From the sequence record SRR20825010_3053: DNA of 34,404 nucleotides; one strand, written 5' to 3'. Positions 226-34,404 of the stretch are shown one piece after another. Numbering within the stretch: the first letter of the stretch is position 1; each line of letters starts with the position of its first letter. The translations under genes and the position numbers were made by a program. The notes under the pieces were generated by a model. The model saw only the letters and a list, made by a program, of their open reading frames with translations, ran no database searches and was not told the DNA's origin.

Positions 226-3200
226 ATGTATCAACCAAAATGTATGAATGTCGCGAGTTTCCGAACTGGAATGCTCGTGCTTTGCGCGTTACTGATCAGC
301 TCTTTGTCTTTTGGGCAGAAGATTGACTTCAGTAAAATGGAAGCAATGAAACCTCGTAGTATAGGCCCTGCCAACATGAGTGGAAGGGTAACCTCTATAG
401 ACGCGGTAAGAAGTAATCCCGAAATAATTTACGCTGGTTCTGCCTCAGGCGGACTTTGGAAATCTGAAAGTGGCGGAATTGCTTGGGAGCCTATTTTTGA
501 TAACGAATTGGCCTTGTCAATTGGAGCTGTAGCTGTTTCTCAAAAAAATCCGAATGTGGTTTGGGTAGGAACAGGAGAAGGTAACCCACGAAACAGTTTA
601 ACGGGTGGTTATGGTGTTTACCGCAGCTTAGATGCTGGAAAAACGTGGAAGCTGATGGGACTTGAGAAAACCCGAAACGTCCACCGTATCATCATTGATC
701 CGAATGATCCTAATACCGTGTATATCGGTGCTATTGGTTCTCCTTGGGGCGATCACAAAGAAAGAGGTGTCTATAAAACCACAAATGGTGGTGAAACGTG
801 GGATCATATTCTTTATGTAGATGAAATGACTGGAGTGGGCGACATGGTAATGGACCCTTCCAACCCAAATAAAATTTTGGTCAACATGTGGCAACACAGA
901 AGAGAACCTTGGTTCTTTACTTCTGGTGGGCCAAGCTCTGGTTTATACATGACCGTAGATGGTGGTAAAAACTGGACAAAGCAATCAGCCAAAGACAACG
1001 GAATTCCAGCAGGCGACTTAGGTCGTATGGGCTTAGCTTTTGCTACGAATAATCCAAATAGAGTCTATGCGCTTATCGAAGCCAAAGAAAATGCATTGTA
1101 CCGTTCAGATGATGGTGGGTTTAAATGGGAGATGATTAATAATGGAAACGACATTGGTAATCGACCTTTCTACTACTACGATATTTATGTGGACCCTAAA
1201 AATGAAAACAGGGTATATAGCATTTTCACTAATGTTCACAGAAGTGAGGATGGCGGTAAGTCATTCGAGAATATCATTCCTAGAAACCTTATTCACGTAG
1301 ATAACCACGCTTTATACATTAACCCTGACGATCCTAAATATATGATCTTGGGTAATGACGGAGGTATGGCGATTACGCGTGATATGGGCAAGAAATGGCA
1401 GTTCGTTGAGAATTTACCATTGGGTCAATTCTACCATATCAATGTAGATAACGAAATGCCTTACAATGTTTATGGAGGTTTGCAAGATAACGGAACCTAT
1501 ACGGGCCCGGCTTACACTTGGATGAGCGATGGAATCAGAAATGATTACTTCTTCACCATTGGTGGGGGTGATGGTTTTGATGTAATGGCCGACCCTGACG
1601 ATTCACGTTATGGCTATTCTCAATCACAACAAGGAAACGTGAGTAGATACGATAAACTTACTGGAAGCAGCAAGAGAATTAAACCTACTAGCGATGACCC
1701 TAAAGTGAAATTGCGTTTCAACTGGAACTCTGCTATGGCACAAGATCCGTTTGATAACAGTACAATTTATTTCGGTAGCCAGTTTGTACACAAGAGTACA
1801 AACAAAGGTGATAGCTGGACGATAATTTCTACAGACTTAACCACCAATGACACTACTAAACAAAATCAAGACAAGAGTGGTGGATTAACAATTGATGCGA
1901 CAGGTGCAGAAAACCATACTACACTTTTGGTGATTGAGCCAAGTGCCGTAGAAAAAGGTGTGCTTTGGGCGGGATCTGATGATGGTTTGATTCATGTTAC
2001 TAGAGATGGTGGTGCTACTTGGACCAACGTGTCAAATAACATTAAGGGTGTTCCTGCTGGATCTTGGGTAAACCAGATCAAAGCTTCTAGATATAACAAA
2101 GGAGAAGCAGTAGCAGTAATCAACAACTATAGAAGGTTCGATTTCAAACCTTACTTGATGAGAACTAAGGATTATGGAAAAACTTGGACAGCGATTGCTT
2201 CTGAAAATGATGTTTTCGGTTACGCATTGTCTTTCATTCAAGACCCAGTAGAGCCTAAGTTGATGTTCTTCGGAACAGAGCATGGTTTATACATCAGTAT
2301 TGATGAAGCTAAAACATGGACGAAGTTCGAGAACGGTTATCCAAGTGTTTCTACAATGGATTTAGTGATTCAAGAGCGCGAGAGTGACTTGGTTATCGGT
2401 ACTTTTGGTAGAGCAATTTACGTACTGGATGATATTAATCCGTTACGTGTTTTAGCTGCTAAAGGACAAAAATCTATTACAGAGTCTGCTGTTACAGCCA
2501 TTGACGCGGTTACTTCTTACATGGTAAGCACAAGAGCTTCTAATGGCCCTGCTAACCCTGGTAACTCTACTTTTGAAGGAGAAAACAGACAGTCTGGTGC
2601 TGCTACGATTAAATTCTTCGCTAAAAAACCTGAAACTCCTGCTGGAGGCAGAGGTGCAGGTGCTCCTCAAGGCCAAGTTAGACCAGCTGGTGGTGGCGGT
2701 CAAGGTGGTGGAGGTGGAGGCCGTGGAGGCCGAGGTGGTGCTGGAGGAGGTAATGCTCCATCGGGACCTCAAGCTAAAATCGAAATCTTTGATATGAGTG
2801 GGAATTTAGTGAGGACATTAAGCTCCTCCTATACCGAAGGTTTAAATAGTGCTTCATGGAGATATGATGAAGATCCTCCAGAAGACACTGTTCAGCCAGA
2901 AGTGCCTGCAGGCGTTCCTGCTCAGTTTGCTAGTTTCTTTAGAAGAGGTGGTGCTCCTGCGTTGCCTGGTAAGTATACTTTCAAAGTAACAATAGGCAAT
3001 AGCTCGGATGAGGGTACTATTGAGTTTCAAATGGATCCTAGAGATACATATGATATCAACAACTTAATTGCTAGAAGAGATTTACTGAGAGAAGTAAATG
3101 TGCTTACGACTGACGTATCTAATTTAGCTTCTAAAATCACGACTGACATGGCGTCTGTTGATAAAGTATTGGAAGCGCTAAAAACTAAACGTGGACCAGA

Positions 3201-6608: not shown

Positions 6609-9074
6609 ATGCTCAAAAACTACATCAAAATTACGCTTAGGTCGCTTATGAAAAATAAGGCCTATTCCTTCATTAACATCTCTGGTCTCGCCATTGGTTT
6701 GGCAGGTGCACTACTGATTCTTCACTACGTCACTTTTGAGCGTAGCTATGATAATTTTCAAAAGGATTCTGAGAATATATACCGGGTAAGCCTTGATATT
6801 TTCCAGAACAACGAAGAAGTATTCAATAGTGCCGAAAATTACCCAGGAGTAGGACCAGCTATGGTGCAAGAATTCCCTGAAGTGATTGAGTGGGCACATT
6901 TATATAATATGGGCGCCAAGAATAATGTGGTAATTACTTATGAAGAGGGGCTAGGTCAGCCTATTAAATTTAAGCAGAGGAGGTTTCTATATGCCAGTCC
7001 AAATTTCCTTTCCCTTTTTTCTAGTCAAATGATTTACGGTGATGCAAAAACTGCACTCGTAGAACCCTTTTCTATTGTAATTTCTGAAAGTACGGCAAAA
7101 AAGTACTTTGGAAATGAAGACCCAATGGGTAAACATTTAAGGCTTAAAGATGATGATTATAATGATGAGAACTGCATTGTAACAGGTGTATATAAGGATT
7201 TACCATCGAATACACACTTGAAATATGATGTCTTAATTTCCACGGCTACCCTTTACGGACGTTTTGAAGGCGCCATGACTAGGTATAAAACCGGCTGGGG
7301 AAGGAAGGACTTTTATACTTACATTAAAGTAGTGGGGGGAACCAATATAAGTGCTTTGGAAGCTAAATTTCCTCAAATGATAGATAAGTATAAACCTGAA
7401 CTAAAGGAAAACGGAGGGGCAAATACCTTTGCTTTACAGCCACTGCAAAGAATACATTTAGATTCACATTTAGGAGATGAAGCAGAACTGAATGGAAGCG
7501 GAGAACCCATTGTTTATCTTTCCATTATCGCCATTTTCATCGTTTTAATCGCTTGGGTAAATTATATAAATTTGGCTACCTCCAGATCATTGGACAGGGC
7601 CAAAGAAGTAGGGATTAGAAAAGTACTGGGCTCTCTTCGAAGTCAATTGATTCGCCAATTTATGTTCGAATCCTTTGTGATTAACCTTCTGGCTGTAGTC
7701 CTTGCTATTGCCATTATTGCCATGGCTTTACCGAGTTTCCATAGCTTAAGTGGTATTCCAGAAGAAGTGAAAATTTGGCAAAATGGGATGATTCTTTGGT
7801 CGCTATTGGCAGCCTTTCTTATTGGCTCATTTGCATCGGGTATTTACCCCGCCTTAGTATTGTCTTCCTTCAAACCTGTGAGTACTTTAACTGGGAAGTT
7901 CAGGAACTCTGGAACTGGAGTTGTGCTCAGAAAGGCCTTGGTGATTTTTCAGTTTGCTGCTTCAACAGCTTTGATCATAGGTACTTTCACGGTGTACAGA
8001 CAAATGCAGTTTGTGAAAAATGCGGAATTGGGTTTTGAAATGGATCAGATTGTTGTGGTGGAACGCCCCGCAATTTCAAATGCTGACCCAGAGTTGAGAA
8101 ACCAACAAGTTGCTGCTTTTAGCAACGAATTAAGGTCAAATTCAAACATTAAGGAGATCACCACTAGCGGGATTGTCCCTGGAAAGAAAATTCGATTTAA
8201 GGCAGATGTCCGGGCCTATAATCAACCTGCTGGGCAGACTTTCCCACTTAATTATGTAGGAGCGGATTATGAGTTTATCCAAACGATGGGGATGGAAGTA
8301 ATTGCTGGCAGGGACTTTTCTAGAGACTTTCCGAATGATATAGATACAGCAGCTTTGGTTTCGAGATCTGCTTTAAGGCAACTCGGTTATGTAAACCCGG
8401 AAGATATTATTGGACAGGCCATCGTGGCAGAGAATTTTGGCGCAACAGCCGTTGTTATTGGAGTGGTGGAAGATTATAACCACGAATCGCTACGAGAGAA
8501 AGCAATACCTTCAGTATTTATTCTAAATCCTTTTTGGGCTGAATATTTTTTAATCAAAGTTCAAGAGCAAAACGTTTCGCCTGCTTTAGCCGCTATCAAA
8601 AGCCAATGGGGAAGTACTTTTCCTGGAAACCCGTTTGAATATTTCTTCCTAGATGAATTCTTCAACCAACAATATAAATCAGAAGATCAGTTTCAATCAC
8701 TCTTTTCCGTCTTTGCAGTTTTGGCCATTTTTATCGGTTGCATGGGGCTTTTCGGTCTTTCTGCTTTTACTGCAATGAAAAGAACCAAAGAGATAGGCGT
8801 GAGAAAAGTACTTGGAGCAACAGTGCCAGGCTTGTTCTTCCTTTTATCTAAAGAGTTTGTCGTGCTTATTCTGATTTCAAGTGTAATCGCTTGGCCGTTA
8901 ATCTATTTAGCGATGGACAGTTGGCTTCAAGGTTTTGAATATCACACCAATATAAATTTGTTGGTTTTTGTGTTCGCTACGGTGCTCATTATAGGGATCG
9001 CACTGATTACGGTAAGCTTTCAAACCATAAAATCAGCACGACTTAATCCAGTAGATTCGTTGAGGTATGAATGA
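6609..9074 (+). CDS. ABC transporter permease, MacB/FtsX family
   Basis: MLKNYIKITLRSL start, YSFINISGLAIG, NYINLATSRSLDRAKEVGIRKVLG, KEIGVRKVLGA, NPVDSLRYE. Confidence 0.92.
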   Translation: MLKNYIKITLRSLMKNKAYSFINISGLAIGLAGALLILHYVTFERSYDNFQKDSENIYRVSLDIFQNNEEVFNSAENYPGVGPAMVQEFPEVIEWAHLYNMGAKNNVVITYEEGLGQPIKFKQRRFLYASPNFLSLFSSQMIYGDAKTALVEPFSIVISESTAKKYFGNEDPMGKHLRLKDDDYNDENCIVTGVYKDLPSNTHLKYDVLISTATLYGRFEGAMTRYKTGWGRKDFYTYIKVVGGTNISALEAKFPQMIDKYKPELKENGGANTFALQPLQRIHLDSHLGDEAELNGSGEPIVYLSIIAIFIVLIAWVNYINLATSRSLDRAKEVGIRKVLGSLRSQLIRQFMFESFVINLLAVVLAIAIIAMALPSFHSLSGIPEEVKIWQNGMILWSLLAAFLIGSFASGIYPALVLSSFKPVSTLTGKFRNSGTGVVLRKALVIFQFAASTALIIGTFTVYRQMQFVKNAELGFEMDQIVVVERPAISNADPELRNQQVAAFSNELRSNSNIKEITTSGIVPGKKIRFKADVRAYNQPAGQTFPLNYVGADYEFIQTMGMEVIAGRDFSRDFPNDIDTAALVSRSALRQLGYVNPEDIIGQAIVAENFGATAVVIGVVEDYNHESLREKAIPSVFILNPFWAEYFLIKVQEQNVSPALAAIKSQWGSTFPGNPFEYFFLDEFFNQQYKSEDQFQSLFSVFAVLAIFIGCMGLFGLSAFTAMKRTKEIGVRKVLGATVPGLFFLLSKEFVVLILISSVIAWPLIYLAMDSWLQGFEYHTNINLLVFVFATVLIIGIALITVSFQTIKSARLNPVDSLRYE

Positions 9075-28683: not shown

Positions 28684-29541
28684 TTACTTCAACAACTCCT
28701 CAAAAACCTTCTGAACATACACCGTAATCGTACCTAAGTATTCAAAATTGATGGTTTCAAAAGTATCAGTTGATTTGTGGTAATGCGGAGTAGTGTCTTT
28801 GTTTACGTATTCTTCGGTCAATCCAATGGCATTAAAGCCCACATTCCTGAAAGAGCGGTGATCGGTAGAAGTGACAGTAGACATGTGGATAGGGAACTCA
28901 TACCCATAGTCCTTGGCCACTTTTAGGTAATGCCCTTTTAGTGCTTCTGTAGGCATTTCCAACTCAAAACCACGATCACCATCATTATCCCAACCCATTT
29001 GGTCAATGGTGTGTACTGAGACAATATTAAAGTTCTCATCCTTTAGCTTTTTCGCATAGGCTTTACTACCTATTAGGCCGCGCTCTTCTTCATCAAAGAA
29101 AACAATCTTCACATTGTACTTACGCAAACTCAAACCTGCAATATGCTTGGCTACTGAATAGACCAAAGCAGTGCCAGAAGCATTGTCATTCGCCCCAGGG
29201 CAATCTTTTACAGAATCATAATGAGCACCTAACACCACCCACTCGTTAGTTTTAGTTGTCGCCATTATTGTCCCCACTACATTATTCCCCGTAGCACTGT
29301 AGCTTTCTATTTCAACTTGATCGATGAATTTTGAGAGTTCTGTTTTTAGGAAAGCTGCCACCATTTCACGCGATTCTTGCGCGTGACGGTCTTTTAGTTT
29401 TGTATTGCCTTTGATTTCTGTGTGGCCAGTAAGCTTAGAGGTTAAGTCTACTTGTTCTTGAAGTTTTCGCCCCTGGAAGGCCAACGAGTTGAAAGAAAAA
29501 AGAAGAATTGCAGCAACTAAAAAATTCAATTTACGGGTCAT
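28684..29541 (-). CDS. Secreted M28-family Zn metallopeptidase
   Basis: GAHYDS, PGANDNASG, FDEEERGLIGS, DQMG, TDHRSF, HYHKSTD; signal peptide. Confidence 0.9.
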   Translation of the reverse strand: MTRKLNFLVAAILLFSFNSLAFQGRKLQEQVDLTSKLTGHTEIKGNTKLKDRHAQESREMVAAFLKTELSKFIDQVEIESYSATGNNVVGTIMATTKTNEWVVLGAHYDSVKDCPGANDNASGTALVYSVAKHIAGLSLRKYNVKIVFFDEEERGLIGSKAYAKKLKDENFNIVSVHTIDQMGWDNDGDRGFELEMPTEALKGHYLKVAKDYGYEFPIHMSTVTSTDHRSFRNVGFNAIGLTEEYVNKDTTPHYHKSTDTFETINFEYLGTITVYVQKVFEELLK

Positions 29542-29673
29542 GTCTTAAGAGTTTTTTGAATTCACAATTTAGAATATTCCTCAATGATAAAAATAGGAAT
29601 GTCGGTTGAATGGCATTTCATTTCAACTTATGAACGAAAGAAATGTCCCCTGATGTAAATTTCCAATTTTCTG

Positions 29674-29704
29674 TTTGCTTTAAAAAAATCCTTTCCTAGA
29701 TTTG
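29674..29704 (+). promoter_or_regulatory. trp operon promoter
   Basis: TTTG (29674-29677), 19-nt spacer, TAGATTTG (29697-29704): an exact Bacteroidota -33/-7 consensus. Confidence 0.75.
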
Positions 29705-29711
29705 GGGCATA

Positions 29712-29768
29712 ATGAGAAACACAAATTTACATAGCGCATGGTGGTGGCATTTAACTGAACTCAGTTGA
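29712..29768 (+). CDS. trpL: trp operon leader peptide
   Basis: MRNTNLHSAWWWHLTELS*, with three consecutive TGG codons, lies between the promoter and a terminator upstream of trpE. Confidence 0.88.
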   Translation: MRNTNLHSAWWWHLTELS

Positions 29769-29803
29769 TGTGAACTCATGCTATACGTAATCTAACGATA
29801 TTC

Positions 29804-29832
29804 AAAAGCCTGCTTCACGCAGGCTTTTTTTT
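29804..29832 (+). terminator. trp attenuator terminator
   Basis: AAAAGCCTGC-TTCAC-GCAGGCTTTTTTTT. The loop TTCAC is complementary to GTGAA at 29770-29774 (candidate antiterminator pairing). Confidence 0.88.
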
Positions 29833-29858
29833 GTTTTAGGCCATTGAAGAACCATAAA

Positions 29859-31268
29859 ATGAACAAGATTAAATTAAATACTACCTCGCAAAAACTACTG
29901 GCAGATACAGTTACCCCAGTGAGTATCTACTTGAAGTTGCGCGACAAATACGAGAACCCAATTTTGTTGGAAAGCTCTGATTATCATGGAAATGACAACA
30001 GCTTTTCTTACATCTGTTGCGAACCGCTGGCCAGTTTTAAGTTGAAGGATGGTCAATTGACAAAGCAGCTGCCAGGCCAAGCGGAAACGCAATACCAAGT
30101 GGAAAACAGTAAGGTTGGCGATGAACTGAGCGCTTTTTCTAAAAGCTTCGAATCCGATGATAACCCTTATAAATTCATCAATAATGGCCTTTTCGGTTAC
30201 ATTGGCTACGATGCAGTCAAGTATTTCGAGAACATTCCGGTAAATGAGAAGAAGGAAGATCAATATGGGATTCCCGATGTGCTTTACCATGTGTACCGCT
30301 ATGTCATCGCCATCGACCATTTCAAAAACGAACTCTATGTTTTTGAGCATTCACCAGAAGGGACCGAACCCAAAGGCTTGGAGCCAATTATCAATTTGGT
30401 GAACAATAAGAATTACCCTTCTTATGAATTCAAAACGGTAGCCGAGGAAAGTTCCAACTATACAGATGATGAGTTTTTGAACATCATTCAAAAAGGAATT
30501 GACCATTGCCACAGAGGAGATGTCTTCCAGATTGTGCTTTCAAGAAGATTCCAGAAAGGCTTTAAGGGAGATGAATTCAACGTATATCGTGCTCTAAGAT
30601 CGGTAAATCCTTCGCCTTACCTTTTCTATTTTGATTATGGAAGCTTCAAAATATTCGGTTCTTCACCCGAAGCACAATTGGTCATTAAAGATGGTGAGGC
30701 TACTATTCACCCCATTGCAGGTACATTTAAACGTACTGGAAACGATGAGGCAGATGCAGAGTTGGCCAAAGCACTACACAATGACCCAAAGGAAAATTCG
30801 GAACACGTTATGTTGGTAGATTTGGCTCGTAATGACCTAAGCCGCGCTGGATCGAATGTGAAAGTGGATACCTACAAAGAAATTCAATACTACTCACATG
30901 TCATTCATTTGGTATCGAAGGTAACGGGAACGTTGAATCCCGATGTGCTTTCAACCGATATGGTAACGGGTACTTTCCCGGCAGGAACACTTTCTGGAGC
31001 TCCGAAAGTACGTGCCATGCAATTAATCAACGAATACGAAAAAACTAGACGAGGCTATTACGGTGGTGCTATCGGCTTCATGGGCTTTGATGGCAATTTC
31101 AACCATGCCATTATGATCCGTTCTTTTCTGAGCAAAAACAGCAATCTACATTTCCAAGCAGGCGCTGGCGTAGTCGCTAAATCAGACAAGGCTTCTGAGT
31201 TGCAAGAAGTAAATAATAAACTCGGGGCGTTGAGAAAGGCCATTGAAATGGCGGAGAATATTAGATAG
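29859..31268 (+). CDS. trpE: Anthranilate synthase component I
   Basis: LADTVTPV, LLESSD, GDVFQIVLS, NPSPY, SSPE, PIAGT, EHVMLVDLARND, FPAGTLSGAPK, QAGAG. The ATG at 29859 is preferred to the TTG at 29844. Confidence 0.96.
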   Translation: MNKIKLNTTSQKLLADTVTPVSIYLKLRDKYENPILLESSDYHGNDNSFSYICCEPLASFKLKDGQLTKQLPGQAETQYQVENSKVGDELSAFSKSFESDDNPYKFINNGLFGYIGYDAVKYFENIPVNEKKEDQYGIPDVLYHVYRYVIAIDHFKNELYVFEHSPEGTEPKGLEPIINLVNNKNYPSYEFKTVAEESSNYTDDEFLNIIQKGIDHCHRGDVFQIVLSRRFQKGFKGDEFNVYRALRSVNPSPYLFYFDYGSFKIFGSSPEAQLVIKDGEATIHPIAGTFKRTGNDEADAELAKALHNDPKENSEHVMLVDLARNDLSRAGSNVKVDTYKEIQYYSHVIHLVSKVTGTLNPDVLSTDMVTGTFPAGTLSGAPKVRAMQLINEYEKTRRGYYGGAIGFMGFDGNFNHAIMIRSFLSKNSNLHFQAGAGVVAKSDKASELQEVNNKLGALRKAIEMAENIR

Positions 31269-31293
31269 TGGTTAAAAGTTAAGAGAAATGAGT
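31259..31293 (+). repeat. Heptamer array, left (AG) arm of the four-helix-bundle cassette
   Basis: TATTAGA TAGTGGT TAAAAGT TAAGAGA AATGAGT; contains the trpE stop and the next ATG. Confidence 0.6.
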
Positions 31294-31692
31294 ATTCACA
31301 GTTTTACGGATTTGGAGGTTTGGAAGAAGGCAAGGGTGCTGAGAAAGAGTATTTCAACTTTAACTCAAAAATTTCCTGCTGATGAAACGTTCAAATTAAC
31401 CGACCAGATCAAACGTTCGAGTAGGTCGATCACGGCAAATATTGCTGAAGGTTGCGGTCGATTTCACTACCAAGAGAATATTCAGTTCTGTAGAATAGCA
31501 AGAGGCTCCTTGACCGAGACTTTAGACCATTTAATTGTTGCCTCCGATGAAGGGTATATCGATGAACAAACTTTAAAGAATTATGAATCTCAATTGACCG
31601 AGGTTAAGAAAATATTGAATGGGTATATCAAATATCTCGCAAAGGCGAAACAATTGCCATTAGATACCGATGAAACTCTCCCTAATAACTAA
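31288..31692 (+). CDS. Four-helix-bundle protein (23S rRNA intervening-sequence protein / Avd-like family)
   Basis: SFTDLEVWKKA, FPADETFKLTDQIKRSSRSITANIAEG, F..IARGSLTE, GYI, ILNGYIKYL. Confidence 0.92.
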   Translation: MSIHSFTDLEVWKKARVLRKSISTLTQKFPADETFKLTDQIKRSSRSITANIAEGCGRFHYQENIQFCRIARGSLTETLDHLIVASDEGYIDEQTLKNYESQLTEVKKILNGYIKYLAKAKQLPLDTDETLPNN

Positions 31693-31715
31693 TTTCTAAT
31701 TACTCATAACTAAAA
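31681..31715 (+). repeat. Heptamer array, right (CT) arm of the four-helix-bundle cassette
   Basis: CCTAATA ACTAATT TCTAATT ACTCATA ACTAAAA; contains the gene's stop codon. Confidence 0.7.
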
Positions 31716-31731
31716 GTGAGCAAAGCGAACG

Positions 31732-32313
31732 ATGATGATACTAATACTAGATAACTACGATTCTTTCACCTACAACTTGGTGCATTACCTTCGCGAGTTG
31801 GCTGAAAATGCAGAAATGACAGTAGTACGAAATGATCAAATTACACTGGACGAAGTGGAGGCATATGATAAAATTCTACTTTCTCCTGGGCCAGGTATTC
31901 CTGAAGAAGCGGGGATTATGCCTGAATTGATCAAGCGTTTTGGCGCAACCAAAAGCATTTTGGGCGTTTGCTTGGGGCATCAGGCTATTGCCGAAGCCTA
32001 TGGAGCGTCACTTTATAATATGACTGAAGTGCTGCATGGCGTTTCAAGCAAAATTAAAGTGGTGAAGACGGATGACAGACTATTCAATGGAATTCCAAGC
32101 GAATATGAAATCTGTCACTATCATAGCTGGAATGTGAATAAAGCGGATTTAGGAAATGAACTTGAAGTAACGGCCTATGACGAGCTCGGTGAAATTATGG
32201 CCATCAGTCATAAAACATATGATGTGAAAGGAGTTCAATTTCACCCAGAGTCGATCATGACAGAGCATGGGCATAAGCTACTTGAGAATTGGCTCAATGC
32301 CGAGGCTCAGTAA
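31732..32313 (+). CDS. trpG: Anthranilate synthase component II (glutamine amidotransferase)
   Basis: DNYDSFTYNL, SPGPG, GVCLGHQ, YHSW, QFHPES. Confidence 0.95.
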   Translation: MMILILDNYDSFTYNLVHYLRELAENAEMTVVRNDQITLDEVEAYDKILLSPGPGIPEEAGIMPELIKRFGATKSILGVCLGHQAIAEAYGASLYNMTEVLHGVSSKIKVVKTDDRLFNGIPSEYEICHYHSWNVNKADLGNELEVTAYDELGEIMAISHKTYDVKGVQFHPESIMTEHGHKLLENWLNAEAQ

Positions 32314-32319
32314 AGAGAA

Positions 32320-32394
32320 AAGGAGTTATGGGTTATGAGTTCTCACCTGATAGCAAGTACTCATAACTAATTCCTCAATAACTAATAACTAGTT
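32320..32394 (+). repeat. Heptamer inverted-repeat element between trpG and trpD
   Basis: AAGGAGT TATGGGT TATGAGT, 18-nt spacer, ACTCATA ACTAATT CCTCAATA ACTAATA ACTAGTT; GTTATGAGT/ACTCATAAC form a perfect 9-bp pair. Confidence 0.8.
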
Positions 32395-32401
32395 AAACAA
32401 G

Positions 32402-33388
32402 ATGAAAGACATACTAAATCAACTTATCGAATACAAATCGTTGGATAAAACCACAGCAAAGGAGATTTTGATGAACCTCACGCTGGGGAAATACAACCAA
32501 AGTCAGGTGGCTGCATTTCTTACTGTTTACCTGATGCGTAGTATTACGGTAGAAGAACTCGAAGGCTTTCGCGATGCCATGTTGGAACTTTGCGTACCGG
32601 TAGATATCCCAGAATACGATGCCATTGACCTTTGCGGAACGGGCGGAGACGGAAAGAATACCTTTAACATTTCCACGCTAAGCTCATTTATTGTGGCTGG
32701 TGCAGGGCAAAACGTAGCCAAGCACGGAAATAATGGCGTGTCGTCTGTTTCTGGTTCTTCTAACCTTATGGCACATTTCGGTTACGAATTTACCAACGAC
32801 ATTGGCAAACTGAAAAAGAGTTTGGACGAAAGTGGAATTGCCTTTTTGCATGCACCACTTTTTCACCCAGCCATGAAAAACGTAGCACCCATTCGAAGAG
32901 ACTTGGGCGTAAAAACCTTCTTTAATATGTTGGGACCGATGGTAAACCCTTCATTCCCAAAGAAACAATTAGTAGGTGTGTTTAGTCTAGAGTTGGCCAG
33001 ACTTTACGGCTACCTTTACCAAAAAACTGATAAGCAGTTTGTGATTTTGCATGCGCTCGATGGTTATGATGAAATTTCATTGACAGGAGGTTTTAAGAAA
33101 ATTACTCATTTGCAGGAAGAAATTGTTCAACCCGAAGATTTAGGATTAACTAGAATTCAACCCGAAGCCATTTTTGGTGGTGAAACGGTGGAAGAATCGG
33201 CTAAGATTTTCGAGAAGATATTAAAAGGCGAAGGCACAAAAGCCCAAAACGAAGTGGTGATTGCCAATTCGGCTATGGCCTTGCAATGTGGTAAAGGCTA
33301 TAGCACCGATAATGCAGTGGGTTACGCACGGGAGTCACTCGAATCGGGGAAGGCATTGAAGACGTTTAAAAAGATACTTGACTTGTAG
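32402..33388 (+). CDS. trpD: Anthranilate phosphoribosyltransferase
   Basis: DLCGTGGDG, FNIST, KHGN, FHPAMK, FNMLGP, GYDEIS. Confidence 0.96.
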   Translation: MKDILNQLIEYKSLDKTTAKEILMNLTLGKYNQSQVAAFLTVYLMRSITVEELEGFRDAMLELCVPVDIPEYDAIDLCGTGGDGKNTFNISTLSSFIVAGAGQNVAKHGNNGVSSVSGSSNLMAHFGYEFTNDIGKLKKSLDESGIAFLHAPLFHPAMKNVAPIRRDLGVKTFFNMLGPMVNPSFPKKQLVGVFSLELARLYGYLYQKTDKQFVILHALDGYDEISLTGGFKKITHLQEEIVQPEDLGLTRIQPEAIFGGETVEESAKIFEKILKGEGTKAQNEVVIANSAMALQCGKGYSTDNAVGYARESLESGKALKTFKKILDL

Positions 33389-33513
33389 TTATTAGTGTAT
33401 GAGAAATGAGTTATGAGGAAAAGGGAATCCTACTTTTTGATTTCTGGTTCAGCAGAAAAGATTGAATTACCTCAGTTACTTAATAACCAATAACTAATAA
33501 CCAATAACTAACA
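33383..33513 (+). repeat. Heptamer inverted-repeat element between trpD and trpC
   Basis: TTGTAGT TATTAGT g TATGAGA AATGAGT TATGAGG, about 50-nt spacer, then ACTTAATA ACCAATA ACTAATA ACCAATA ACTAACA. Confidence 0.8.
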
Positions 33514-33517
33514 CAGA

Positions 33518-34318
33518 ATGGATATTTTACAAAAAATCATAACATACAAAGAGAAAGAAGTAGCCGAACGAAAAGGGCTTTTCCCTCCTAAGTTATTAGA
33601 GCAGAGCATTTACTTCGAGAGCAAGACCGTTTCGCTGAAAAAGTATTTGCTGCGCGAAGATAAATCGGGAATTATAGCAGAATTCAAGCGTAAATCGCCT
33701 TCAAAAGGAGTAATCAATGCGCATGCGAAGGTAGAACGCACTACTATCGGTTACATGCAGGCAGGCGCTTCGGCACTTTCTGTACTGACGGATTCTGAGT
33801 TTTTCGGAGGAAAGAATGAAGACCTTTCTACGGCCAGAAAATTTAACTTTTGCCCTGTATTAAGAAAGGACTTTATCATTGATGAATACCAAATTATTGA
33901 AGCCAAGTCGATTGGGGCCGATGCTATTTTGCTGATTGCGGCTTGCTTGACGCCAGAGCGATTGAAAGAATTGGCGGCATTTGCCAAAACGCTTCAGTTA
34001 GAAGTGCTGATGGAAATTCACAATGAAGAAGAGTTACATCCGTACCTCTCTCCAGATTTGGACGCGGTAGGAGTAAACAACCGCAACCTTAAGACTTTCG
34101 AAACCAGTATTGAAACTTCAAAAATGTTGGTGGACAAAATTCCGAATGAATTTGTGAAGATTTCAGAAAGCGGTATTAGCGACCCTGCTACGATTGTCGA
34201 GTTGAAAAAGGTAGGCTTCCAAGGCTTTCTAATTGGAGAAACCTTTATGAAAACGGGTCGGCCAGAGCGCGCAGCTGCTGAGTTTATTGAGCAAGTCAGG
34301 AAACAGTTGATCGGTTGA
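33518..34318 (+). CDS. trpC: Indole-3-glycerol phosphate synthase
   Basis: IAEFKRKSPSKG, SVLTD, LRKDF, GADAILLI, GVNNRNL, SESGI, LIGE. Confidence 0.96.
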   Translation: MDILQKIITYKEKEVAERKGLFPPKLLEQSIYFESKTVSLKKYLLREDKSGIIAEFKRKSPSKGVINAHAKVERTTIGYMQAGASALSVLTDSEFFGGKNEDLSTARKFNFCPVLRKDFIIDEYQIIEAKSIGADAILLIAACLTPERLKELAAFAKTLQLEVLMEIHNEEELHPYLSPDLDAVGVNNRNLKTFETSIETSKMLVDKIPNEFVKISESGISDPATIVELKKVGFQGFLIGETFMKTGRPERAAAEFIEQVRKQLIG

Positions 34319-34404
34319 TCAGGGAATCAGAAAACAGGAAATCGGGGAACCCATATTCTTATTGAAAGTTCTCTCTAACTACTAACTACTAACTACTAAC
34401 TACT
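34294..34404 (+). repeat. Heptamer element after trpC (truncated by the window edge)
   Basis: Purine-rich units AGTCAGG AAACAGT GATCGGT GATCAGG AATCAGA AAACAGG at 7-8 nt spacing, then TCTAACT (ACTAACT)x3 ACT from 34374. Confidence 0.7.

Follow-up and report, generated by a model that had tools for sequence, protein, structure and literature searches.

A four-helix-bundle gene between heptamer arrays in a Roseivirga trp operon as a probable intervening-sequence-type cassette

The question raised by this locus is why a gene of the four-helix-bundle (4HB) family PF05635 lies in the middle of a tryptophan biosynthesis operon, with an array of 7-nt units at either end. The locus belongs to a stretch of 34,404 nucleotides from sequence record SRR20825010_3053 (hereafter the window), the final 5 kb of which form a trp operon in the order trpE, PF05635 gene, trpG, trpD and trpC, with all five genes confirmed by Pfam. 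An earlier reading made from the letters alone (the sequence-only reading) had proposed that the gene and the arrays are either a loaded cassette with empty relatives or an RNA-level system controlling the operon. Here, we propose that the two heptamer arrays and the 4HB gene that they enclose probably form one cassette of the intervening sequence (IVS) type, lodged between the stop codon of trpE and the start codon of trpG, and that the IVSs of 23S rRNA are best described as elements of this kind at one special insertion site. The PF05635/TIGR02436 family is large and without known function, and both the IVSs of 23S rRNA and the heptamer repeats of bacteria have been puzzling for decades; this locus joins all three as one object.

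The TrpE protein of the window is 98-99% identical to those of R. ehrenbergii, R. echinicomitans and R. seohaensis, indicating that this is a Roseivirga trp operon. On the plus strand, trpE (anthranilate synthase component I; 29844..31268) runs into a left array of five 7-nt units (31259..31293) that covers the stop codon of trpE (31266-31268) as well as the 4HB start codon, an ATG (31288-31290). The 4HB gene itself (31288..31692), assigned to PF05635 / TIGR02436 by hidden Markov model (HMM) scores, encodes 134 amino acids, and its stop codon is covered by a right array of the complementary class, built of NCTNNNN units (31676..31719), after which trpG begins (31732..32313). The cassette occupies the entire trpE-trpG spacer and has the orientation of the operon. 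Both arrays stand out in self-matching at a lag of 7: the left array matches at 17/28 positions, in the top 0.19% of all 35-nt windows, and the right array at 20/28, in the top 0.06%; lags 5, 6, 8 and 9 give no excess. Merged stretches that reach 18/28 matches number six in the whole 34.4 kb, and every one of them lies at a trp junction (31258-31292, 31676-31719, 32309-32343, 32359-32393, 33472-33524 and 34362-34404). Tandem Repeats Finder (TRF) also gave three short period-7 rows away from the trp junctions, with 2.1-2.8 copies. Few 7-periodic arrays were found across 400 kb of R. ehrenbergii (15 loose calls, compared with 4.8 in shuffles), with a concentration in the trp operon. The unit classes named in the sequence-only reading, AG-type on the left and CT-type on the right, were confirmed, apart from one misfit unit on either side: AG stands at positions 5-6 in 4/5 left units (TAGTGGT fails), and CT stands at positions 2-3 in 5/5 right units, but the first right unit begins with C and not with W. 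The class alone does not single out the cassette, as phased AG (at least 4/5) and phased CT each occur at 4 places in the window.

PF05635 is common in the phylum, with matches in 52/61 genomes sampled across Bacteroidota, a maximum of 19 matches per genome, and 6, 7 and 11 matches in the three Roseivirga relatives (G001-G003) that were used for genome-wide analyses. The arm test was carried out on 46 full-length Bacteroidota copies, comprising 17 from Roseivirga and the best copy each of 29 other genomes; seven fragmentary or stop-containing matches (L070, L072, L076-L080) were omitted before counting. Complementarity between the upstream and downstream flanks of each gene was compared with the percentiles of mismatched flank pairs, and 910 non-4HB genes served as the control, drawn from the loci of these copies, from the window and the trp loci, and from an unselected contig of 400 kb (306 genes). 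Own-arm complementarity exceeded the 95th percentile in 34/46 4HB copies compared with 24/910 other genes (1/306 on the unselected contig), and the 99th percentile in 20/46 compared with 3/910 (0/306 on the same contig). Strict arrays adjoined 27/46 4HB genes but only 7/306 genes of the unselected contig. The sequence-only reading had made its cassette depend on such a comparison of flanks with control genes, and arrays and arms proved far commoner beside 4HB genes.

The unit is 7 nt long in 23/37 arms and 8 nt in 10-12/37, its sequence differs from copy to copy, and the median arm spans 4.4 units. G-rich 5′ arms are found in 33/37 copies (p = 2e-7), and stop codons in all three frames occur in 16/37 left arms (6.3 in shuffles) and 11/37 right arms (2.7 in shuffles). 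The upstream neighbour is co-oriented with the 4HB gene in 43/46 copies, at a median gap of 62 nt, and the downstream neighbour in 35 copies, at a median gap of 47 nt. The counts of co-oriented neighbours show a cassette that depends on the orientation of its host.

The same counts bear on the plainest alternative, namely that the arrays are general translation-leader features of intergenic DNA, of the TAACTGA type, and that 4HB genes merely lie in such spacers. Gene-less arrays do exist, some of them with non-complementary arms, and (TAACTGA)n precedes trpF as the right arm in L001 and L043. In the window, the distance from the end of the right array to the next ATG is 6 nt for trpC and about 10-17 nt for trpD and trpG; the arrays stop just 5′ of start codons, like the TAACTGA repeats in the available text of PMC4679880. 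A feature general to spacers should not, on the other hand, be found with 34/46 4HB genes and 24/910 others, or as strict arrays with 27/46 and 7/306, and its arms should not relocate with the gene to another junction, as described below. This explanation is already disfavoured, and we regard it as very improbable.

Relatives of the window provided a second line of evidence. In a survey of 56 trp loci by tblastn with the window 4HB protein, the gene was found between trpE and trpG in 11 loci, between trpG and trpD in 3 (2 of which also carry one between trpC and trpF), and in none of these places in 42. Some gene-free junctions are tight (an overlap or 7 nt), and others are occupied by two-arm spacers without a gene, in several unit classes. 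Among named isolates, which are not known to be pathogens, R. ehrenbergii KMM 6017 is filled and has degenerate arms, R. echinicomitans KMM 6058 and R. seohaensis SW-152 are filled and have good arms, and in R. thermotolerans CGMCC 1.15111 the cassette has moved and left a relic behind. Replacement is seen in L005 and L043, whose genes share ~90% nucleotide identity with those of the window, whereas the trpE-trpG interval is only 51-73% identical (100-nt bins) and carries a 62-66% identical 4HB allele with ATCAG-type instead of GTTA-type arms. Smaller changes occur between orthologues: the left-array spacer is 19 nt long in the window and 26 nt in L001, L002 and L004, a difference of 7 nt.

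Decay was traced in R. thermotolerans (L011), where the trpE-trpG spacer equals the L012 cassette minus 324 bp. The flanks are 69/79 and 51/56 identical, the ATG survives together with 13 codons, and short direct repeats flank the deletion; judged by this alignment, the gene-less hairpin of L011 is demonstrably a full cassette decayed by internal deletion. In a maximum-likelihood tree, the 16 proteins encoded in trp operons group together (99/99) and are separate from 13 further Roseivirga copies. Within this clade, an ATCAG-armed subclade (100/99) spans two junctions, and the trpG-trpD copy of L011 is sister to the trpE-trpG copy of L012 (100/98). Given that these sister copies lie at different junctions, the sequence has moved between junctions, arms included. 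Taken together, these comparisons show that the arms belong to the 4HB gene and travel with it, and that the cassette has been gained, lost, replaced and relocated among trp junctions and decays to a gene-less hairpin among congeners. The filled and empty alleles that the sequence-only reading looked for by comparing junctions across relatives thus exist in Roseivirga, and its loaded cassette with empty relatives is supported by them together with the replaced and relocated alleles and the 324-bp deletion. As the alleles of this one operon form a natural series across Roseivirga, the functions of the arms and of the protein are directly testable.

Gene-less counterparts are also present in the window itself, on the same strand. 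The trpG-trpD spacer contains a gene-less hairpin with GTTATGAG-type arms (32321..32375, from RNA folding and TRF) and, 3′ of it, a second right-type array reaching 32393 (TRF rows 32323-32341 and 32359-32391). Between trpD (32402..33388) and trpC (33518..34318), both identified by Pfam, lies a gene-less two-arm element (33388..33511, from RNA folding and TRF; rows 33387-33417 and 33481-33511), which has GAGAAATGAGT within its left arm and a right array of the form (AATAACY)n, ending 6 nt 5′ of the trpC ATG, and which is orthologous in L002 and L005 at 95% identity. Two further arrays 3′ of trpC, cut by the window end (34318..34404, from TRF), are ATCAG-like on the left and (CTAACTA)4.3 on the right and are not complementary. 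The next three junctions, at which the sequence-only reading saw the two-arm design recur without the gene, differ from one another: the trpG-trpD spacer (-21.1 kcal/mol, z -3.1, 0/200 shuffles as good) and the trpD-trpC spacer (-26.5 kcal/mol, z -2.1) fold as hairpins, but the arrays 3′ of trpC do not pair (fold z +0.3). The exact words reported to be shared between cassette arms and gene-less spacers were all recovered, GAGAAATGAGT twice (0.04 expected), TACTCATAACTAA twice (0.00 expected) and AATAACTAAT three times (0.18 expected), the last two being common to the right array at 31676..31719 and the following spacers. A blastn-short search with the three gene-less spacers returned no 4HB coding remnant, only orthologous spacers and arm-type matches. 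As these spacers are tied to the cassette by shared arm words only, relic status is shown for L011 alone; annotators should nevertheless be cautious, as many short operon spacers may be remains of such cassettes.

Some spacers of the surveyed loci have peculiarities of their own. In L005 (8468-8571) and L043 (8475-8578), the trpG ORF (open reading frame) continues through the left array of a gene-less spacer, giving a C-terminal extension of ~20 residues, and the right array comes after the new stop codon. The trpE-trpG spacers of L013 (2616-2719) and L016 (7398-7497) carry a GC-rich palindromic repeat (cccctc...ggggag type) and no heptamers. In L006, a relative at 89% identity, an unrelated stretch with its own palindrome (7847-8048), and not trpG, lies 3′ of the cassette, where the trp operon may be interrupted. 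Two operon spacers on G001:C49, at about 151,500-151,680 (L117) and 92,510-92,670 (L114), combine a left ATCAG-type with a right GACTATT-type array that is not complementary to it, and resemble chimeric two-arm elements.

How might a cassette of this kind be expressed and tolerated within an operon? A scan for sigma-70-type sites, to which promoters of the Bacteroidota type are invisible, detected nothing promoter-like in the 19-nt gap 5′ of the 4HB gene, and no terminator-like sites were found by scanning the trp operon spacers. Transcription of the cassette would rely on read-through from the trp promoter, which the attenuator controls. In copies with arms that still pair, unlike the window copy, these could form a stem of ~26 paired positions that RNase III might cut as in rRNA IVSs. 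We propose that such a cut would free the cassette RNA from its neighbours, and that the outward-facing, G-poor, stop-rich arrays would let the flanking genes terminate and restart, so that the insertion would be tolerated. Arm complementarity may be kept or made at the DNA level, and the cassette could spread to new junctions through its arrays, acting as portable homology, or through a trans factor.

Several results weigh against this reading of the locus as an IVS-type cassette. In the window copy, the degenerate pairing described by the sequence-only reading was confirmed: the arm score of 8.5 was matched by 102/500 shuffles, which is not above chance, and the whole cassette folds no better than shuffles (z -0.12). 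One 7-bp match is present, in which the start-codon unit ATGAGTA pairs with TACTCAT 3′ of the stop. Given this score and fold, a stem or an RNase III step is unlikely for the window copy now. Among the 46 copies, 12 have no significant arms. A few copies, L090 and the plasmid copy L153 among them, have direct instead of inverted arrays. Sense-strand G.U mismatches in 37 arm pairs numbered 51 and A.C mismatches 59, without bias (p = 0.50), and nothing in these wobble counts shows selection on an RNA stem. Some gene-less spacers have two non-complementary arm classes (two in the 400 kb of R. ehrenbergii, and 34318-34404 in the window). There was no sign of a transposase, of target duplication or of identical copies of recent origin. 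PF05635 genes do cluster: of 324 matches, the 150 listed include 12 pairs within 6 kb, where 1.12 would be expected. We considered clustered cassettes as local duplicates; this was rejected outside Roseivirga, where identity is highest within the cluster in only 2/9 genomes, so that local duplication is not the general route. Finally, the protein is under purifying selection on par with trpG, which is no less compatible with a useful gene than with a selfish one.

The wobble counts also bear on an alternative in which the inverted arrays are recombination or replication substrates, as cruciforms or single-strand hairpins, for a host enzyme, with the RNA stem incidental and the gene a cargo. 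Given that G.U is not in excess over A.C, arm complementarity may indeed be made at the DNA level, and each arm is complementary to its own partner but not to foreign arms, as expected of concerted copying. The 7-nt indels between orthologues, the short direct repeats flanking the L011 deletion and the rapid turnover of spacer class at one junction between species at ~90% nucleotide identity point in the same direction. A symmetric DNA element would not, on the other hand, account for the 43/46 copies co-oriented with the upstream gene, which point to dependence on transcription; moreover, there is no recombinase gene among the window ORFs scanned, and no target duplications were seen. We judge this purely DNA-level explanation to be distinctly unlikely.

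The protein itself was examined for what it might contribute. It scored 127.8 bits against PF05635 (cut-off 33.8) and 122 bits against TIGR02436 (cut-off 24); PF05635 was its sole Pfam match, with no Y1 (IS200-like) transposase, and PADLOC gave no match. The predicted structure (predicted local distance difference test score, 91.7) has four helices, at residues 10-26, 31-56, 61-87 and 93-120. The PF05635/TIGR02436 structures 2gsc and 2rld are its nearest solved structures, with TM-scores of 0.81/0.93 for 2gsc (XCC0516) and 0.70-0.73 for 2rld (BT_0352). Chains A-E are listed in both PDB entries, and XCC0516 is a pentamer, as cited in PMC4990558. The ratio of nonsynonymous to synonymous substitution rates (dN/dS) is 0.05-0.14 for the 4HB gene and 0.04-0.06 for trpG; by this measure, the 4HB protein is maintained by purifying selection. 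Seven residues (Q40, S47, N51, E54, G55, S74 and E77) are invariant in 21 sequences.

The kinship to Avd of diversity-generating retroelements (DGRs) that the sequence-only reading had invoked stands for the fold and not for the sequence. The predicted structure matches Avd (4dwl, TM-score 0.72) and the DGR ribonucleoprotein (8ub7, TM-score 0.74), but sequence identity is 9%, and the Avd equivalog model NF033474 gave 21.4 bits, below its cut-off of 80. Might the protein then be an accessory that partners a reverse transcriptase in a DGR or another retroelement? The Avd-like fold and the weak match to the Avd model would suit such a role. Nevertheless, the neighbours of the gene are trp genes and not a reverse transcriptase, none of the 15 window ORFs scanned encodes one, and the reverse transcriptase model RVT_1 had 0 matches in the draft genomes G001 and G003, which carry 6 and 11 4HB copies, and 2 in G002; template and variable repeats were not seen, though none were sought. 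This role is therefore improbable in the extreme.

A more substantial alternative is that the 4HB oligomer is a domesticated regulator. It would bind periodic arrays at the RNA or DNA level, both those flanking its own gene and those in gene-less spacers elsewhere in the operon, and through this binding adjust processing, translation or stability for the trp genes. The strong selection on the protein, with its invariant polar motif, the likeness to a component of the DGR ribonucleoprotein, the median of 4.4 units per arm and the exact words common to the gene-less spacers and the cassette arms of the window are all consistent with this idea, as is the trpG-trpD spacer of L005 and L043, which has the same arm class as their own cassette. 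Against it, 42/56 trp loci, congeners included, lack the cassette, and therefore the trp operon does not need it; arm classes are mixed within operons (L004 has a GTTA-type cassette alongside ATCAG-type spacers), and arms vary widely between copies while the protein motif is constant. We consider such a regulator rather unlikely.

The IVS-type cassette finds a further parallel in the repetitive extragenic palindromic (REP/REPIN) sequences and their REP-associated tyrosine transposases (RAYTs), where a gene lies between inverted repeats and more numerous related gene-less hairpins occur between operon genes. The present element differs in that its protein is a four-helix bundle and not a Y1 transposase, and in that the arm sequence is particular to each copy, without a genome-wide consensus.

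The closest likeness is to the IVSs of 23S rRNA, for which the background given in the sequence-only reading on RNase III matches the available text of PMC4990558. According to that text, the Coxiella burnetii IVS (in helix 45) has a 28-bp terminal stem, within which RNase III cuts, and tandem GACAGAT heptamers in variable number 5′ of an ATG; its ORF is described as decaying and probably untranslated, and ORF-bearing 23S IVSs are cited for Leptospira and Brucella also. The window cassette shares with these IVSs, as far as they are described there, an ORF of the same family, variable tandem heptamers 5′ of the ATG and a complementary arm 3′ of the stop, in an element regarded as selfish. It differs in lying at an mRNA operon junction (trpE-trpG) and not in an rRNA helix, in having arms that no longer pair, whereas those of 34/46 family members do, and in having an ORF under purifying selection, unlike the ORF of Coxiella; cutting by RNase III is, for the window cassette, hypothetical.

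A direct link between the two settings was found beyond Bacteroidota. A tblastn search returned 28 plasmid records with 4HB matches, mostly cyanobacterial, and complementary arms were present in 8/10 plasmid copies examined (z 2.1 to 16.0). The Pseudanabaena plasmid L153 is an exception to the arm rule, having ~16 AAAAGCT units 5′ and ~12 AAAAGCC units 3′ of the gene in direct orientation. In the Azospirillum lipoferum plasmid AZO_p2 (L158, 13989-15124), a 4HB ORF lies inside a 23S rRNA gene identified by Rfam. The arm score was low with the automatic start, but by eye G-rich heptamers stand 5′ of the ORF and their complements 3′, and therefore a true rRNA IVS has the same build. This ORF-bearing IVS is missing from the gene table of the record. 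On the cyanobacterial plasmids L151, L153 and L155, the 4HB cassette is situated within CRISPR-cas operons, once in the cmr2/cmr3 interval and, in two genera, in the cas6/cas4 interval.

Tandem intergenic 7-mers have been described as TAACTGA repeats (MacGregor 2015, PMC4679880) and as GGGAATC / GGGGAYT repeats (Rehm 2015, PMC4692102). In the available text of these papers, the repeats often lie just 5′ of start codons or within operons and show 7-nt indels, and 70-75 convergent pairs of heptamer repeats are given for Xanthomonas (PMC4679880 / PMC4692102). The window arrays resemble the TAACTGA repeats as forward tandem 7-mers near start codons, but with other units (AATAACY, ACTNATA and CTAACTA), TAACTGA itself occurring in L001 and L043; they differ from the published repeats in forming two arms around, or left by, a gene. 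The 4HB family is unmentioned in the available text of PMC4679880 and PMC4692102, although their supplementary repeat-locus tables, which lie outside this comparison, might show 4HB neighbours. Our full-text literature searches found no description of a 4HB gene with heptamer arms outside rRNA.

A wider reading, which we hold to be doubtful but worth stating, is that PF05635 cassettes are the autonomous members of a widespread element family across Bacteroidota, Cyanobacteria, Xanthomonas and Beggiatoaceae, and that gene-less hairpins and start-codon-proximal arrays are its non-autonomous or decayed members. The 4HB protein, as a ring, would bind the periodic arms and in this way create, maintain or move them, or control how they are processed. 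If this were true, one protein family would account for both the 23S rRNA IVSs and the long-noted excess of 7-nt repeats in bacteria.

The remaining features provide the context of the cassette. No Rfam match was found for the spacers of the window, nor any rRNA match in 29000-34404, and the ten other window ORFs scanned with Pfam were ordinary chromosomal genes or had no match, without a recombinase or a reverse transcriptase among them. Upstream of trpE on the plus strand, a trp leader peptide ORF (MRNTNLHSAWWWHLTELS, followed by a stop codon; 29713..29769) contains three consecutive Trp codons, and an attenuator terminator with a 10-bp stem and a T-run (29804..29838) lies just 5′ of trpE. 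An Rfam match to Trp_leader-like RNA at 29733-29832 scored 35.6 bits, below the gathering score of 41. By its sequence features, this arrangement of leader peptide and terminator 5′ of trpE is classical attenuation in a Cytophagales genome. Among the surveyed loci, an insert of ~700 bp between trpG and trpD in Larkinella (L023, L024, L025, L031 and L033, at about 2400-3170) was tried as a further 4HB cassette and rejected, as it carries an unrelated ORF. Other Larkinella loci (L026-L029) have, instead of this insert, a trpG-trpD gap of 38 nt.

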